From a virus (lineage: Duplodnaviria > Heunggongvirae > Uroviricota > Caudoviricetes): 30,282 bases of DNA. The stretch is from IMG/VR virus record IMGVR_UViG_2671181050_000003; one strand, 5' to 3'. Below are positions 10,315 through 28,334 of this stretch, piece by piece. The notes beneath the pieces were generated by a model that saw nothing but the letters and a program-made list of their open reading frames with translations, was not told where the DNA came from and did not search any database. Made by a program: the position numbers and the translations under genes. How positions within the stretch are numbered: the first letter of the stretch is position 1; every line of letters begins with the position of its first letter.

Positions 10315-11101
10315 CCAGTCTCCCCGAATTACTCATTTCATGCAGCGATGACACGATGTCACTGACAGGCGTAACAACGCCCCGACGCTGGCTGGTCAGA
10401 ATATCGGTTTCCGCTCTGAGTTTATCTCTGGCAGCGTTGATTCTTTCCCGGTCAGCACGAAGTTTTGGTGCTGTTTCCGCCAGAACGTCCAGCGTCAGCA
10501 ATGAGCGTTCAATTGACTCGATACGGGCAATATTCCGGTCAAGAGCCTGTTCGGCTTTAAGTATTTTGTCGTACAGGGCAACACGGGTTTCCACGTCAGC
10601 CGCCTCTTTCAGGTCGGCGAACATTTTTTTCAGTGTTCCTGTTACTGAAAGTGCGCGGGCACGGGTGAACACCAGTTCATCGAACAGCACCATATCGGAC
10701 GCATCATCCATGAGGTTATCTGCCTCAAGATACTTCGCATATCCACGGTGTCTCACGGCGTGGGTGTTACGGTCGCTAAACCGGGCAACGGGGTGAGGAT
10801 TGCCCGATCTGCTGTTGCGTTTCGTTTCTGCCGAATTTGCGCAGTTTTTTTCAGAATTTTTTGCGCATTTTTCATCGTCGGAACCCGCGTCATTGCTGGG
10901 TTCTTCATCTGAGATGTCATGATCGATTTCATGATCGGTTTTATGATCGATTTCATGATCGATTTTGCCCATTTTTATACGGGTTCTGGCGGTGTTGTAA
11001 TTAATCTTTTTCTTACGGCACCACTCCAGTAATGTTATTCCCGTTTCGGCATGTTCGCGTCGGAATGCCTGCTCCAGTTTTTTCCAGTCCAGCTTTGCCA
11101 T
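10295..11101 (-). CDS. Terminase small subunit (268 aa) with an internal (E/K)(I/T)DH tandem repeat
   Basis: N-terminal DNA-binding-like region and C-terminal coiled coil; gene overlaps the large terminase start; first gene after the lysis cassette. Confidence 0.6.
   Translation of the reverse strand: MAKLDWKKLEQAFRREHAETGITLLEWCRKKKINYNTARTRIKMGKIDHEIDHKTDHEIDHDISDEEPSNDAGSDDEKCAKNSEKNCANSAETKRNSRSGNPHPVARFSDRNTHAVRHRGYAKYLEADNLMDDASDMVLFDELVFTRARALSVTGTLKKMFADLKEAADVETRVALYDKILKAEQALDRNIARIESIERSLLTLDVLAETAPKLRADRERINAARDKLRAETDILTSQRRGVVTPVSDIVSSLHEMSNSGRLDDIPEE
10919..10966. repeat. Four tandem 12-bp repeats (ATGATCGATTTC-like) inside the small terminase gene
   Basis: Read directly in the sequence; in-frame, encoding IDHEIDHKTDHEIDHD. 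Confidence 0.8.
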
Positions 11102-11402
11102 GTCACTTTCTGACGTCCTCTGTTAAAAACTGACGCATAATGACCGCTGTGATTTTTCAGAATTCACACAGCAGCGTCTTGTTTGATTGATATTTACACA
11201 ATATGGTTGTTTTATCCGGTTTCTTCCACCACCGCACCGGACAGGCGGCCATGCGGGAAAACGCTCACGTTACCTGAAAACGTGGAAAGCCCGGTGTGCA
11301 TCGTTTTTGATTATCCCCACACACTCGCGCAGGAGGTCCAGTGTCTGGCTGAGGTCTCTGTTAATGCGGGAATACTGCGACGATACGGCGCATCAGCAAA
11401 AC

Positions 11403-11870
11403 TTATTTCAGGCACTGAGTGCGGATATATTCCTGTGCCCCTTCCAGCTGCTTCTGCATCATCATCAACCGCTCTCTGAGGGTGAAATAATCCCGTTCAG
11501 CGGTGTCTGCCAGTCGGGGGCCGGTTGCATTATCCATGCCGGAGGTGCCGGTGGCTTCACGCACGGTACCGGAGCAGGTGGCGTTGATCCGCAGGCGCTT
11601 ACGACCAGCAGCAACATCAGCACGCAGAGTTTCATTTTCAGCTCTCGCATCGGCTAATTCCCTCGAGTATTTTGCATCGAGCGCAGCAACATCGCGCTGG
11701 CGCACCTGCATATCAGTAATGGTGGCGTTTGCCAGCTCCAGCTCTCTGGCTTTTTTATCGCGCTGCGCTTTGTAGGTGATGGCGTTATCGCGGTAATGGT
11801 CTGTTGCCAGCCACAGCGCACCACAGCCACCCGCCAGGACAATAATCACCACACACAGAACACGGCTCAT
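11403..11870 (-). CDS. Rz: Rz-like i-spanin (155 aa)
   Basis: N-terminal transmembrane segment, coiled-coil periplasmic domain, position after the endolysin, and a complete embedded +1-frame lipoprotein ORF. Confidence 0.8.
11465..11635 (-). CDS. Rz1: Rz1-like o-spanin lipoprotein, embedded in Rz in another frame
   Basis: [15 protein letters not shown] lipobox followed by a Pro-rich mature peptide; start taken at the internal Met of track ORF 11465..11650. Confidence 0.7.
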
Positions 11871-11877
11871 CTCTCTT

Positions 11878-12009
11878 TCACCCCACCAGTCCCGATAACG
11901 TCAGGACTCGCCAGGCGGTGGAAAAGAAAATGGCAACCAGCATTAGTGAAAATGAAATGCCGACAATTACACAGAGGATCTTCGCCAGCGTTATGAGTTT
12001 GTCTGACAT
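11878..12009 (-). CDS. Small single-pass membrane protein (43 aa)
   Basis: Internal ATG of track ORF 11878..12099 preceded by AAGGGAGG at ideal spacing; translation [30 protein letters not shown] is a clear transmembrane helix. Confidence 0.45.
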
Positions 12010-12023
12010 GCTTAATCCTCCCT

Positions 12024-12206
12024 TCACGATTTCAACGCAATGACCAGTTTTGCCAGCCCATACAGCATCGGGGACACAGCAACACCGACCGCCACCCACT
12101 TAATGGCAAAAGCCAGTGCTCTGCTGATGTCATCAGTTACAGGCGCTTTCAGTTCAAGGCCGTTTTTCATAGTCAACCTCAACAGAATTCGTTTATACTT
12201 TTCCAT
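12024..12206 (-). CDS. Small hypothetical protein (60 aa) with a C-terminal hydrophobic segment
   Basis: Internal ATG (MEKYKRILL...) of track ORF 12024..12239 preceded by AAGGGAGA; sits between endolysin and Rz. Confidence 0.4.
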   Translation of the reverse strand: MEKYKRILLRLTMKNGLELKAPVTDDISRALAFAIKWVAVGVAVSPMLYGLAKLVIALKS

Positions 12207-12236
12207 GTTCTCCCTTGCCTTATCCAAGGTCAGAAA

Positions 12237-12275
12237 CACAAAACCCCGCTTGCAGCCAACAAACGGGGTTTTTAC
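12237..12275. terminator. Bidirectional hairpin terminator inside the lysis cassette
   Basis: CCCCGCTTG/CAAACGGGG stem flanked by an A-run upstream and a T-run downstream, so it can act on either strand. Confidence 0.4.
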
Positions 12276-12362
12276 TTTTATTCACTTAGTTTTTGTCAGT
12301 TCGCAGGATTTCGTGTTATCCGTCCGTGTGAGCAAACCGCATTTTTCAGCAAAATATTCTGC

Positions 12363-12896
12363 TTATCTGTCAATTCCCCAGCACGCCAGCGCGCTCTCCT
12401 GGTCACGCCGCGATACCTGCCCGTAACAGTTATTTGAGCGATTCCGACAGTCCCTGCCGCCGTCATATATCCATCGGCGGATTTCAGCACATGCACCTTT
12501 CCGGTCTCCGGCGTTCAGTTTCCGGTAAAACGTTGAGGTGAAGCATTTCGAAGGCCCGATGTTGTACGGACAGAATGACGCGATGCCCGCTTTCTGCGGT
12601 TCAGTCAGTGGCACTCTGATGTTTTTCTCCACCCATGCCAGCGCCTTATCACGCTCAATGGCGTTAACCTGGTCGCATTTTTCCTTCGACAACTTCATGC
12701 CCGGGACGACAGGTTTGCCATCCACCATGATGGCACCACGGCAGATGGTCCAGATCCCCGCACCATCACGGTATGCCGTGGTGTGGTTACCTTCTTTTTC
12801 GTCAAGAAACTGGTCGATGATTTCAGGCGCAGAAGCACCTGCCGCAATCAGCGCCAGAACGGCTACCGATAAACCATAGTGGAGTTTCTGAGTCAC
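12363..12896 (-). CDS. R: SAR endolysin, phage lysozyme with T4-lysozyme-type catalytic triad (177 aa)
   Basis: N-terminal Gly/Ala-rich weakly hydrophobic segment (signal-arrest-release type), then E-x8-D-x5-T (EGNHTTAYRDGAGIWT); immediately downstream of a pinholin-like gene. Confidence 0.85.
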   Translation of the reverse strand: MTQKLHYGLSVAVLALIAAGASAPEIIDQFLDEKEGNHTTAYRDGAGIWTICRGAIMVDGKPVVPGMKLSKEKCDQVNAIERDKALAWVEKNIRVPLTEPQKAGIASFCPYNIGPSKCFTSTFYRKLNAGDRKGACAEIRRWIYDGGRDCRNRSNNCYGQVSRRDQESALACWGIDR

Positions 12897-12900
12897 CTAA

Positions 12901-13116
12901 TCACTCTCCCCGGGCAGCCTTGCGACGGTCCTCTTTAATTTTGAAATACAGATTCGTCAGGTATGTCAGGAACCCCAGACACAGGCTCCCCAAAACCCCG
13001 ATAGCAGCCCACTGTGACGGAGTAACCTGATCCAACCACTGTAGAAACCAGTAACCCGCACTGCCCGCAGAAGTACCATAGGCTATGCCCGTTGATATTT
13101 TTTCCATCTGATACAT
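12901..13116 (-). CDS. S: Class II holin of the phage 21 pinholin type (71 aa) with dual-start motif
   Basis: Translation [45 protein letters not shown]... closely matches my recollection of the phage 21 S pinholin; two transmembrane domains; Met1/Met4 dual starts. Confidence 0.85.
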
Positions 13117-13192
13117 ATCCCCGCCCCGACAGACCTGTGCTACCGGAAATAAAAAAGGCCATCAGTGTTTTACTGATGGCCCTGCCCCGCCG

Positions 13193-13483
13193 TTACAGCA
13201 TTGTGCCCGGTTCGGGTTGTGTGTCTGTCATATCCGTCACCGGTGACTCCGGCTGAATATCACCATTTTCCGTGGTGACATCTTCCGCCTGTGGTTCCGG
13301 AAGCAGTTCCGGGGATGGTTCCGGCTGTGCACCAAGCAATTCATCCAGAATTGAATCCACTTCTGCATCAAGACGCGCCTCAAGGTTCTGCCGAAGTTGC
13401 TGTTTCAGTGCGCTCCGGACTTCTTCAGAGCGCAGGACTTCCTTCACTGCCTCAGCAGTGACCAGCGATTTTATTTCTGACAT
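13193..13483 (-). CDS. Hypothetical acidic protein (96 aa)
   Basis: Start taken at the internal Met (MSEIKSLV...) of track ORF 13193..13657; Pro/Glu-rich C-terminus; weak ribosome-binding site. Confidence 0.35.
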   Translation of the reverse strand: MSEIKSLVTAEAVKEVLRSEEVRSALKQQLRQNLEARLDAEVDSILDELLGAQPEPSPELLPEPQAEDVTTENGDIQPESPVTDMTDTQPEPGTML

Positions 13484-13508
13484 AGGATTTTCTCGTTGAA
13501 AGGGGTTA

Positions 13509-13703
13509 TTAAGAAGGTTGTTCCGGAATGAGTGGGGCTTCTGTTTTTGCTCCGGCTGACTGAGTGGCGCTGATTTTCTCAGCGGCCCTTTTGTCAATCT
13601 GTCTGCGCCAGAAGTCGCGTACTGCCCTGTATCCACCCGAAAGCAGATACAACACACAGACCACCGTACAGAAGTACAGCATTAACTGGTTGATGAATGT
13701 CAT
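13509..13703 (-). CDS. Small hypothetical membrane protein (64 aa)
   Basis: One predicted transmembrane helix (LMLYFCTVVCVLYLLSGG); lies in the gap downstream of the esterase gene. Confidence 0.3.
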   Translation of the reverse strand: MTFINQLMLYFCTVVCVLYLLSGGYRAVRDFWRRQIDKRAAEKISATQSAGAKTEAPLIPEQPS

Positions 13704-13843
13704 GGTTTATTACCGTTACTGTTGACAATGAGAACTGTTTTCATTTAGAAATGATTGATGTCGAAAGCATCCTTTCGTTAGATTCTCCATTGGGATTACC
13801 TCCGCCAGTCTCCATTCCTGTTGCTGGCGGTTTTTTTCGTCTG

Positions 13844-16047: not shown

Positions 16048-16054
16048 ATCCAAC

Positions 16055-16300
16055 AAGAAAGCCCCTCCGGAGAGGGGCTGGAGAGTAGCGCTATGTACCG
16101 TTCATGCATGGTGCAGGGTGCCTCCCGGTGAGTTCAGTATCAGCACCTGAACCCGCACCAGAAAGGATAAGGGGTGTGACCAAACACCTGTCGCTGATAT
16201 GCCCCTCCGCACAGGGGGATTCACCATGCCATATTTTTTTAACAAACTTCCCGCTGGCCAGACAATAATCGCCAGCCTGAATTGTGAGTAACGTGGCATT
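16055..16300 (-). repeat. Repeat unit A of an ORF-free tandem family, ending in a hairpin terminator (16061..16079)
   Basis: Shares conserved blocks with unit B (aaagcccctccggagaggggctg, catggtgc.agggtgcctcccggt, gggggattcacca, atttttaacaaa, gccagacaat, aattgtgag). Confidence 0.6.
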
Positions 16301-16324: not shown

Positions 16325-16534
16325 TAAAAAGGCCCGCCGGAGCGAGCCTGGAAGGATAGCGGTCATGTGATGCCGGTTTCCCGGTAACTCAGCATCGGTA
16401 TCTGAGTCAACGTTTTCTCTACTGGGTCATTTCCGATACGTTCCGCCTTCCGGCAGACTTTCATCACGTCAGAAAATATAGCACCCTGAGTAACAGGACA
16501 GTACTCAGAATTCAGGAAACTGTGACACATCCTG
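16325..16534 (-). repeat. Diverged middle unit of the same family, with its own hairpin terminator (16330..16349)
   Basis: Opens with aaaggcccgccggagcgagcctgg...tagcggtcatg, parallel to the start of units A and B. Confidence 0.4.
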
Positions 16535-16790
16535 CACAGAAAAGCCCCTCCGGAGAGGGGCTGAAGTATAGCCTAATTTCTGTCTGTCGCATGGTGCCAG
16601 GTGCCTCCCGGTAAATTCAGCCTGGCTACTGAATTTGCATGTTCGCTGGATCATACACTTTGCCAGATGCCCCGCCGCTGAGGGGGATTCACCACGCGAT
16701 GCAATTTTTAACAAATTCTCCGGCAGCCAGACAATCATCAAGCTGTGGAATTGTGAGGTATTTAAAAATTTCGCAGCCTCTTGCCACCCG
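16535..16790 (-). repeat. Repeat unit B, ending in a hairpin terminator (16544..16561 plus T-run)
   Basis: See unit A; perfect GCCCCTC/GAGGGGC stem followed by TTTTCTGTG on the minus strand. Confidence 0.6.
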
Positions 16791-20341: not shown

Positions 20342-20609
20342 GACAACGCCCTCTGGTTGATGAATTTAACTATCACCACCGTCAGGTGCAAATCTTTGGG
20401 TGGTGAGACGTACAGGGTTTGCACTACCGGATCAACCAACCGGCGAGCCTTTCGGCTCCCCCATACGCCCCACCATAATTCAGATGTGCGTGTGCTTACG
20501 ACAACAAAAAACACGCTCGCGGCGTGTGTCTGTCGCGGTTGAATATCCGGGGTGCAAATCCCGACGCCAGATTTTGCTGGCGTGCGAAGAATATAATCCC
20601 GGATATGTG

Positions 20610-28276: not shown

Positions 28277-28334
28277 TTTCTGGTGACATTTGGCGGTATC
28301 AGTTTTACTCCGTGACTGCTCTGCCGCCCTTTTT
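28277..28334 (+). ncRNA. dicF: DicF-like small RNA
   Basis: tttctggtgacatttggcggtatcagttttactccgtgactgctctgccgcccttttt matches the E. coli DicF sequence as I recall it with about one substitution; followed by dicB-like and ydfD-like genes as in Qin. Confidence 0.65.

Follow-up and report, generated by a model that had tools for sequence, protein, structure and literature searches.

Small membrane proteins associated with phage lysis are the closest described counterparts of the locus reported here, which lies in a 30,282-nucleotide stretch of Caudoviricetes DNA (IMG/VR record IMGVR_UViG_2671181050_000003), henceforth referred to as the window. Between the endolysin gene R and the spanin gene Rz, the window contains two small open reading frames (ORFs) of 60 and 43 amino acids (aa), ORF60 and ORF43, preceded by a leader and a hairpin. 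The feature is real, common and conserved: inside the lysis cassette lies a read-through hairpin, and a series of small membrane-peptide genes is joined to the translation signals of the spanin gene.

The Lcc6 protein of Shewanella phage LambdaSo, a 65-aa single-pass protein, is required for lysis by a pinholin and an endolysin of the signal-anchor-release (SAR) kind, and its authors ask whether other lambda-like phages have such factors (10.1101/2024.01.23.576932). The likeness to the window is that of a very small, single-helix inner-membrane protein of no known family in a lambdoid phage with a pinholin, a SAR endolysin and Rz/Rz1. The Lcc6 gene, however, is distant from the lysis genes and near int/xis. 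As described in the preprint, Lcc6 has an N-terminal transmembrane (TM) segment and a 43-aa cytoplasmic tail; in ORF60 this order is reversed, and ORF43 is nearly devoid of soluble sequence. Lysis also requires Lcc6, whereas the window peptides, being interchangeable and in some cases frameshifted, cannot be universally essential.

The releasin gp25 of phage Mu is membrane-tethered, helps the SAR endolysin to exit the membrane and also works on heterologous SAR endolysins (PMC9239132). It resembles the present case as a late-expressed accessory gene a few genes from a SAR endolysin. It differs in its length (99 aa), its N-out/C-in orientation, its 73-aa acidic cytoplasmic domain and its DUF2730 family, and Mu lacks a holin, whereas the window cassette has one. 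ORF60, ORF43 and two further peptides of 45 and 28 aa found in related cassettes have neither a DUF2730 match nor an acidic domain.

Antiholins and other holin modulators (phage 21 S71, lambda S107, P1 LydB, P2 LysA, T4 RI) are small membrane proteins encoded in or beside lysis cassettes, and they shift lysis timing without being required for lysis. Those of the phage 21 and lambda types are alternative start products of the holin gene. ORF60 and ORF43 are likewise small TM proteins encoded within a lysis cassette, here between R and Rz, and are probably expressed late; no sequence relation to antiholins was found. None of the four peptides matched a Pfam holin family at E values up to 1, a search in which the true holin at 12901-13116 matched Phage_holin_2_1. 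Nor do the ORFs resemble spanins: a lipobox is absent from both, and in ORF43 the TM segment is followed by just 14 residues. The likeness to Lcc6, the releasin and the antiholins is therefore one of kind, not of membership.

Morons of lambdoid phages (Juhala et al. 2000, as cited in PMC4104026) in their classic form carry a promoter of their own upstream and a terminator of their own downstream, and the prophage expresses them; the late operon downstream of pR' tolerates insertions of this sort. The segment studied here is moron-like in being extra DNA between genes that are adjacent in relatives, with a GC content below that of its neighbours. It is unlike a moron in that the hairpin lies upstream, no promoter was detected and the downstream end is joined to the translation signals of Rz.

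No description of ORF60 or ORF43 was found in the literature when searched by peptide sequence, position and lysis terms, and a survey of lysis cassettes of Shiga toxin (Stx) phages lists holin, endolysin and Rz/Rz1 only (PMC8136144), as is usual in descriptions of this cassette type. Two groups of previously described elements were considered and set aside. The small proteins of Escherichia coli K-12 (YnfQ, YnfR, YnfS and others) are not positional relatives, as the Qin prophage has no ORFs between rrrQ and rzpQ. The anti-sRNA and Pas small RNA (sRNA) sites of enterohaemorrhagic E. coli prophages are found outside the R-Rz interval, either 3' of stx or in the stretch that separates the esterase gene from the holin gene.

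Organization of the R-Rz interval

The lysis cassette is encoded on the minus strand and contains the following elements, listed in the direction of transcription.

12901-13116, minus strand: class II (phage 21 S-type) pinholin gene, 71 aa (Pfam Phage_holin_2_1, E = 5e-35; PHROG holin families).
12363-12896, minus strand: lysozyme gene R, 177 aa, with a SAR-like, weakly hydrophobic N-terminal segment (Pfam Phage_lysozyme, E = 2e-25).
12273-12362, minus strand: conserved leader of ~90 nucleotides (nt), beginning directly after the endolysin stop codon (alignment).
12240-12272, minus strand: stem-loop followed by UUUUGUGUUUCUG (terminator scan and folding).
12207-12239, minus strand: post-hairpin leader with ribosome-binding site (RBS) CTGACCTTGGATAAGGCAAGGGAGAAC (conservation).
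12024-12206, minus strand: ORF60, 60 aa, MEKYK...ALKS (phrog_1115, E = 1e-42; RefSeq WP_021566721.1).
11878-12009, minus strand: ORF43, 43 aa, MSDKL...GLVG (phrog_4906, E = 2.5e-27; RefSeq WP_001280930.1).
11403-11870, minus strand: Rz i-spanin gene, 155 aa (Pfam Phage_lysis, E = 7e-50; phrog_13).
11465-11650, minus strand: Rz1 o-spanin gene, 61 aa, embedded in Rz (Pfam Rz1, E = 3e-21).

R and Rz are separated by 492 nt, as the initial annotation of this DNA had noted (~490 bp). Starting from R, this gap contains the leader, the hairpin, the RBS leader, ORF60, a 14-nt spacer, ORF43 and 7 nt before the Rz ATG. Lysis cassettes had been described there as usually contiguous, and the Qin prophage of K-12 agrees, since its R and Rz genes (rrrQ and rzpQ) overlap with no ORF between them. 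The N-terminal segment of R, LSVAVLALIAAGASAP, has a Kyte-Doolittle value of 1.95. GC content was 0.475 for ORF60 and 0.485 for ORF43 versus 0.545 for R and 0.56 for Rz, a modest difference that is partly expected from hydrophobic codons.

Both ORFs were located on the minus strand, and the AAGGGAG RBS assigned to each was confirmed upstream of its ATG (GCAAGGGAGAAC before ORF60 and GTGAAGGGAGGATTAAGC before ORF43). The ORF60 stop codon overlaps the RBS of ORF43, the ORF43 stop codon lies 7 nt ahead of the Rz ATG, and the final codons of ORF43 form the RBS of Rz.

ORF60 and ORF43 are conserved membrane-peptide genes

On comparative evidence, ORF60 and ORF43 are conserved protein-coding genes, each with one predicted hydrophobic helix. 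They are taken as genes rather than chance frames because their length is conserved, the ratio of nonsynonymous to synonymous polymorphism (pN/pS) is low in frame only, and both match PHROG families. ORF43 is 132 nt long in 73 of 77 distinct R-Rz gaps. The pN/pS was 0.33-0.54 for ORF60 and 0.40-0.54 for ORF43 in frame and 0.9-1.5 in the other two frames. Homologues of ORF60 in Salmonella (65-83% identity) keep the reading frame intact and preserve an N-terminal KYxRI motif, which supports the upstream start codon. The comparison with related cassettes proposed in the initial annotation, where lack of conservation was to count against the genes, thus found both ORFs conserved in frame and length.

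The hydrophobic segment reported for each ORF was also recovered as one strongly hydrophobic 19-residue window per peptide, at residues 38-56 of ORF60 (Kyte-Doolittle 1.88) and 11-29 of ORF43 (2.87). ORF60 comprises a basic N-terminal helix (net charge +4 in the N-terminal part), a loop and a long hydrophobic C-terminal helix (AFAIKWVAVGVAVSPMLYGLAKLVIAL); its AlphaFold2 model has helices at 2-14 and 23-59 joined by a loop, with a mean confidence score (pLDDT) of 75. ORF43 is a predicted single-pass peptide with flanks of 10-14 residues, 14 of them past the TM segment.

The PHROG matches (phrog_1115, phrog_4493 and phrog_3246 for ORF60; phrog_4906 for ORF43) are families of unknown function, and PGAP/RefSeq labels both products hypothetical protein. 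Neither ORF had a Pfam, NCBIfam or PADLOC match (PADLOC at E values up to 10). Both families are narrow and do not extend beyond Escherichia, Shigella and Salmonella. When 1.84 billion representatives were searched by profile, only 21 clusters matched, and there were no matches among GTDB species representatives. An apparent homology between ORF60 and ORF43 in hhalign was rejected, as it was traced to one ORF43-ORF60 fusion sequence in the alignment.

Variants of the interval in related prophages and phages

The arrangement is common, already carries the label hypothetical protein in RefSeq, and is no peculiarity of this prophage. The slot is occupied in this manner in hundreds of phages of E. 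coli and Salmonella, most Stx phages among them. At least 80% of the segment was present in 990 of 5426 complete E. coli genomes. By tblastn, ORF43 occurred in 276 phage records (for example BP-4795, Min27, YYZ-2008 and P13374), where it is mostly unannotated; it also occurs in the 933W-type locus L008.

A first set of 168 loci, retrieved through the two peptides, had these architectures.

holin-(YdfR)-R-ORF60-ORF43-Rz: about 100 loci.
holin-(YdfR)-R-antirepressor-ORF43-Rz: about 50 loci.
R-ORF60-(28-aa peptide)-Rz: a few loci.
R-ORF43-Rz: a few loci.
GH108 endolysin-ORF60-ORF43: one locus.

A second, less biased census selected loci by an 18-nt leader word alone and yielded 120 loci, 108 of them with a recognisable Rz start. 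The architectures of the 120 loci were as follows.

ORF60-ORF43-Rz: 23 loci.
45-aa peptide-Rz: 21 loci.
ORF60-28-aa peptide-Rz: about 17 loci.
antirepressor-ORF43-Rz: about 16 loci.
truncated 45-aa peptide-ORF43-ORF60-28-aa peptide-Rz: about 15 loci.
rarer architectures: the remainder.

A hydrophobic small ORF ended right before Rz in about 100 of the 108 loci, the last ORF being the 28-aa peptide in 37, ORF43 in about 41 and the 45-aa peptide in about 23. The slot is thus filled by varying combinations of four small single-helix genes, ORF60, ORF43 and the 45-aa and 28-aa peptides (the latter two both ending in IRWW), although some cassettes have one small ORF only between hairpin and Rz. The window is one combination drawn from this shuffling array.

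The 45-aa peptide (phrog_6632) is a single helix that ends 1 nt before Rz and has an in-frame pN/pS of 0.22. It is present in 46 phage records, including H-19B, almost all of which leave the gene unannotated, and it fills the slot in H-19B, TL-2011c and many Stx1a and Stx2c phages, whose similarity to the window is limited to the leader and hairpin. Examples of the gene are given below.

L178, 1981-2115: 45-aa peptide gene in phage Stx2_95.
L180, 1462-1599: 45-aa peptide gene in Salmonella phage SPN3UB.
H-19B and TL-2011c: also with the 45-aa peptide gene.

ORF43 was seen only beside Rz or within the peptide array, and it stays beside Rz where an antirepressor gene replaces ORF60 in 933W-type phages. 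The Salmonella homologue of ORF60 is placed directly 5' of Rz after three kinds of gene: a phage lysozyme, an antirepressor, or a GH19 endolysin that is paired with a lambda-S-type holin.

Some individual loci have additional small genes. In L006 of E. coli MEI7BO1-21 (1543-2064), ORF60 and ORF43 come after a GH108 endolysin accompanied by two holin genes, and the place of Rz after them is taken by a 60-aa ORF with a lipobox (phrog_7528); L019 and L242 have this lipoprotein ORF as well, there downstream of Rz. Upstream of the leader, SPN3UB has an extra 38-aa hydrophobic ORF (L180, 1190-1306), overlapping the end of the lysozyme gene. The holin-endolysin junction is also a cargo site in L001, L003, L005, L178 and L179, where it holds YdfR/DUF1327 (114 aa) or unrelated 186- or 330-aa ORFs, or is empty; the holin and endolysin genes of the window have no cargo at their junction.

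The leader and hairpin are part of the conserved unit

The hairpin and the 90-nt leader are conserved parts of the unit, a point that the initial annotation had overlooked. The leader is conserved by alignment across 60 distinct E. coli and Salmonella sequences and is also present behind the Salmonella GH19 endolysin (L171). At that locus, homology begins at the endolysin stop codon with leader, hairpin and RBS leader all present, and both leader and hairpin are therefore assigned, by this comparison, to the peptide-Rz unit and not to R. The post-hairpin leader is conserved before whichever small ORF comes first, ORF60 in the window and the 45-aa peptide in SPN3UB and Rac-SA53.

The hairpin has 14 pairs, 6 of them G-C. 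Folded as minus-strand RNA it gave -21.6 kcal/mol (z = -3.3), and none of 200 shuffled sequences folded as well. It is predicted to be an intrinsic terminator, with a G+C-rich stem-loop followed by a U-run, which is interrupted (UUUUGUGUUUCUG). Pairing was kept in 97% of pair cells over 14 variants, exceeding shuffled and slid controls, and two pairs showed compensatory changes between E. coli and Salmonella.

The terminator had been annotated as bidirectional, which is the least secure word of that description. A consensus scan called it terminator-like only for the minus (coding) strand. Read from the plus strand, the hairpin loses its G-U pairs and is weaker (-14.6 kcal/mol, z = -2.5), and it was not called by the scan, although a T-run (TTTTTACTTTTATT) follows it.

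Rfam searches returned nothing real at the locus, either over the whole window at the gathering threshold or over 11300-13300 at E values up to 10. Three further structural proposals were rejected. A consensus structure for the leader was abandoned, since RNAalifold, applied to a mixture of hairpin types, aligned the hairpins wrongly and detected little covariation. An anti-terminator pairing was considered and was not convincing. An equivalent hairpin in 933W-type phages holds only in part; many have GGCACCGTAATGGTGCC and a T-run at this position, but the 933W-type copy folds no better than shuffled sequences. The otherwise near-invariant 90-nt leader also contains a hypervariable patch (~12322-12340), which in many relatives is a short palindrome (CGTTGGCCAACG, GCGTGGCCACGC, TGGCGCCA) and in the window is non-palindromic.

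Probable late expression and possible coupling to Rz

No sigma-70-like promoter was found on the coding strand in 11000-13400 by a simple consensus scan, nor a convincing one by eye in the leader. Because only about 30 nt, without a promoter-like site, separate the hairpin from the ORF60 start, transcripts of ORF60, ORF43 and Rz/Rz1 would have to read through the hairpin, and expression is likely to be late rather than in the prophage state. In lambdoid late operons, Q-modified polymerase reads through terminators, as in lambda Q antitermination. Q-modified RNA polymerase from the late promoter would accordingly pass the hairpin, so that the peptides and Rz/Rz1 are made, while other transcripts would stop there.

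In every intact variant the spacer between the last peptide gene and the Rz ATG is 1, 7 or 11 nt (PGAP coordinates), and the last codons of all peptide types spell the Rz RBS, GGTGGGGTGA or GGTGGTGA. In the folded ORF43-Rz junction, the Rz RBS GGUGGGGUGAAAGAGA (GGUGG) is predicted to pair with UUUUCUUUUCCACC (containing CCACC) inside ORF43, and analogous pairings were predicted in all four other variants folded. The z-score was -1.97 for the window and -2.4 and -2.6 for two variants; the other two were not significant. These pairings suggest that translation of Rz is coupled to that of the preceding small ORF; translation of the peptide gene would open the pairing and thereby allow translation of Rz.

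Proposed role of the peptides and alternative explanations

The initial annotation proposed lysis modulators, a membrane toxin or superinfection-exclusion peptides. Its core, that these are genuine small membrane-peptide genes in a lysis cassette downstream of a terminator-like hairpin, is upheld, and the three functions can now be tentatively ranked by evidence. We favour, with a probability of about 40%, the reading in which the two genes, expressed late and in coupling with Rz, encode accessory membrane peptides whose role is to modulate a step of lysis that takes place at the membrane. The peptides would insert in the inner membrane and tune such a step, candidate targets being pinholin triggering, release of the membrane-tethered endolysin and the behaviour of the Rz TM anchor. 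They would act as non-essential modulators, not as core lysis factors. This reading is favoured because the slot beside Rz is nearly always filled with the last peptide abutting Rz, because ORF43 persists when its neighbour is swapped, because the peptides accompany Rz behind at least four endolysin types, and because expression appears to need read-through of the hairpin. By analogy, Lcc6 and the Mu releasin indicate that small single-pass proteins may matter in SAR-endolysin lysis.

A broader claim is that the slot between hairpin and Rz marks a previously unnoticed kind of lysis-cassette component: interchangeable single-helix peptides that a read-through terminator gates, whose translation is coupled to that of the spanin gene and that set the timing or completeness of lysis by pinholin/SAR-endolysin cassettes. 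We regard this as unlikely at present. If the class is real, the peptides would set how much Shiga toxin and phage an induced cell releases, and their shuffling would tune lysis timing. The locus is of interest in that induced E. coli depends on lysis cassettes of this kind to release Shiga toxin and phage, and in that almost all such cassettes have between one and four additional small membrane-peptide genes downstream of a conserved hairpin, mostly unannotated in phage records. Following Lcc6 and the Mu releasin, these ORFs are a directly testable set in tractable E. coli phages.

Several observations weigh against a role in lysis. Lambda lyses without such ORFs; as lambda and Qin of K-12 both lack them, the peptides cannot be core lysis factors. 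Some loci have a frameshifted ORF43 or truncated 45-aa peptide genes, and, as noted above, the four peptides match no Pfam holin or releasin (DUF2730) family. The absence of a promoter comes from a simple consensus scan, and the z-scores of the Rz-RBS pairing are only modest. Shuffling gene combinations and lower GC (47-48% versus 54-56%) are typical of passenger DNA. Moreover, comparison of loci indicates that the cassette is mobile and not restricted to lysis modules. In phage Rac-SA53 (L182, 1380-1600), the same hairpin, the CTGACCTTGAATAAGGCAAGG leader and the 45-aa peptide lie inside a baseplate operon, 7 nt ahead of the next gene; the last codons of the peptide again give GGTGGTGA just before that gene, and 87% protein identity is retained in this wholly different operon. 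SEN34 (L181) has the 45-aa peptide gene at an equivalent position among its baseplate genes. Relatives and paralogues of ORF60 adjoin tail-fibre genes (L174, L176 and L177), sometimes in tandem and with hairpins preceding them, and are also found beside SASA-esterase genes.

These locations support the main rival, which is a possible explanation though a somewhat less probable one: the ORFs are moron-like passenger membrane proteins, carried by a mobile cassette of hairpin, RBS and small ORF that inserts between late genes, with a role unrelated to lysis. Such a role could be to exclude other phages, to modify the envelope of the host, or to mask a receptor and so keep progeny from being lost to debris. 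The wide differences in gene combination among otherwise near-identical cassettes, the lower GC, the narrowness of the families and the lack of such ORFs in Qin and lambda all fit this explanation, as does the other cargo at neighbouring junctions (antirepressor, YdfR, Bor and PerC). The position of the hairpin and the lack of a detected promoter are, however, the reverse of a classic moron and argue against expression in the lysogen. In addition, a slot filled in about 100 of 108 loci is more regular than random cargo, and ORF43 was seen nowhere but beside Rz or in the array. Superinfection exclusion, one of the functions first proposed, gains from the relatives of ORF60 and the 45-aa peptide in tail-fibre and baseplate operons, but neither ORF60 nor ORF43 matched an exclusion or defence family in PADLOC (E values up to 10) or Pfam. 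Even as passengers, the genes would clearly illustrate how a compact cassette can enter between late genes and supply translation signals to the gene that follows.

The predicted coupling to Rz is open to a different explanation, which we consider improbable: the ORFs act in cis as leader ORFs that deliver ribosomes to Rz and unfold its RBS, the peptide being largely incidental and its hydrophobicity a consequence of U-rich RNA. The fixed spacers, the RBS codons at the end of every peptide type and the predicted CCACC pairing in each ORF type are what this explanation would expect, and at least three peptide families without detectable similarity share the same place. The amino-acid sequences are nevertheless under purifying selection, and each of the four peptides has a single membrane helix and a conserved length. 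In an unrelated operon the 45-aa peptide keeps its 87% identity, ORF60 is equally conserved though not adjacent to Rz in the window, and two of the five folded variants were not significantly better than shuffled sequences.

The membrane toxin of the initial annotation finds almost no support. In its most explicit form, a type I toxin-antitoxin-like pair, ORF60 (or ORF43) would be the toxin and an antisense RNA would run from plus-strand 12170-12199 to the hairpin. Within 11000-13400 the sole promoter-like site does lie there on the plus strand (TAGTCA, 18 nt, TATACT), aimed at the hairpin with the T-run beyond it; the resulting ~75-nt RNA would cover the ORF60 RBS, and the product is small and hydrophobic. 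A single 9-of-12 promoter match is, however, fewer than the 2.0 expected by chance from shuffled sequences, and the site falls within Lys-Tyr-Lys codons that are A/T-rich for coding reasons. With the weaker plus-strand hairpin not called as a terminator, no Rfam or Pfam toxin family match, and an operon with tight Rz spacing unlike free-standing type I loci, this arrangement is very improbable. Finally, chance open frames in a non-coding spacer in which the hairpin alone is functional, a notion prompted by the very short ORFs, their lack of a Pfam/NCBIfam family and their absence from the annotation of many phage records, are contradicted by comparative data, namely the conserved frame and length, a pN/pS below 0.55 in frame only, strong RBSs at correct spacing and Salmonella homologues that keep the frame at 65-83% identity.

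Additional features of the window

Downstream of the lysis cassette, the window contains the two terminase genes.

11101-10295, minus strand: terminase small subunit gene.
10314-8608, minus strand: terminase large subunit gene.

On the other side of the cassette, a second terminator-like hairpin (13183-13155, minus strand) lies just 5' of the holin gene. A 64-aa hydrophobic ORF (13703-13509, minus strand) is DUF1378-like by its position in the annotated relative L001, and a DUF826-like ORF is also present in 13120-13843 (minus strand). The esterase-holin interval of related prophages holds Pas and anti-sRNA genes (bioRxiv 10.64898/2026.05.13.724894).

Two copies of the STnc100 sRNA were identified upstream of the esterase gene at 16049-16258 and 16534-16727 (both minus strand), ~280 nt apart and scoring 130 and 139 bits versus a gathering score of 47. 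Full-length Rfam matches were also obtained for DicF (28278-28329, plus strand), isrK (20506-20583, minus strand) and C4 antisense RNA (20396-20480, minus strand), and on account of these three matches the window is taken to span the regulatory regions of a lambdoid or P4-like mosaic prophage. In the gene for the terminase small subunit, a short tandem DNA repeat (gatcgatttcatgatcg...) at 10919-10970 (minus strand) specifies a DHEIDHKTDHEIDHD stretch close to the N-terminus of the protein.

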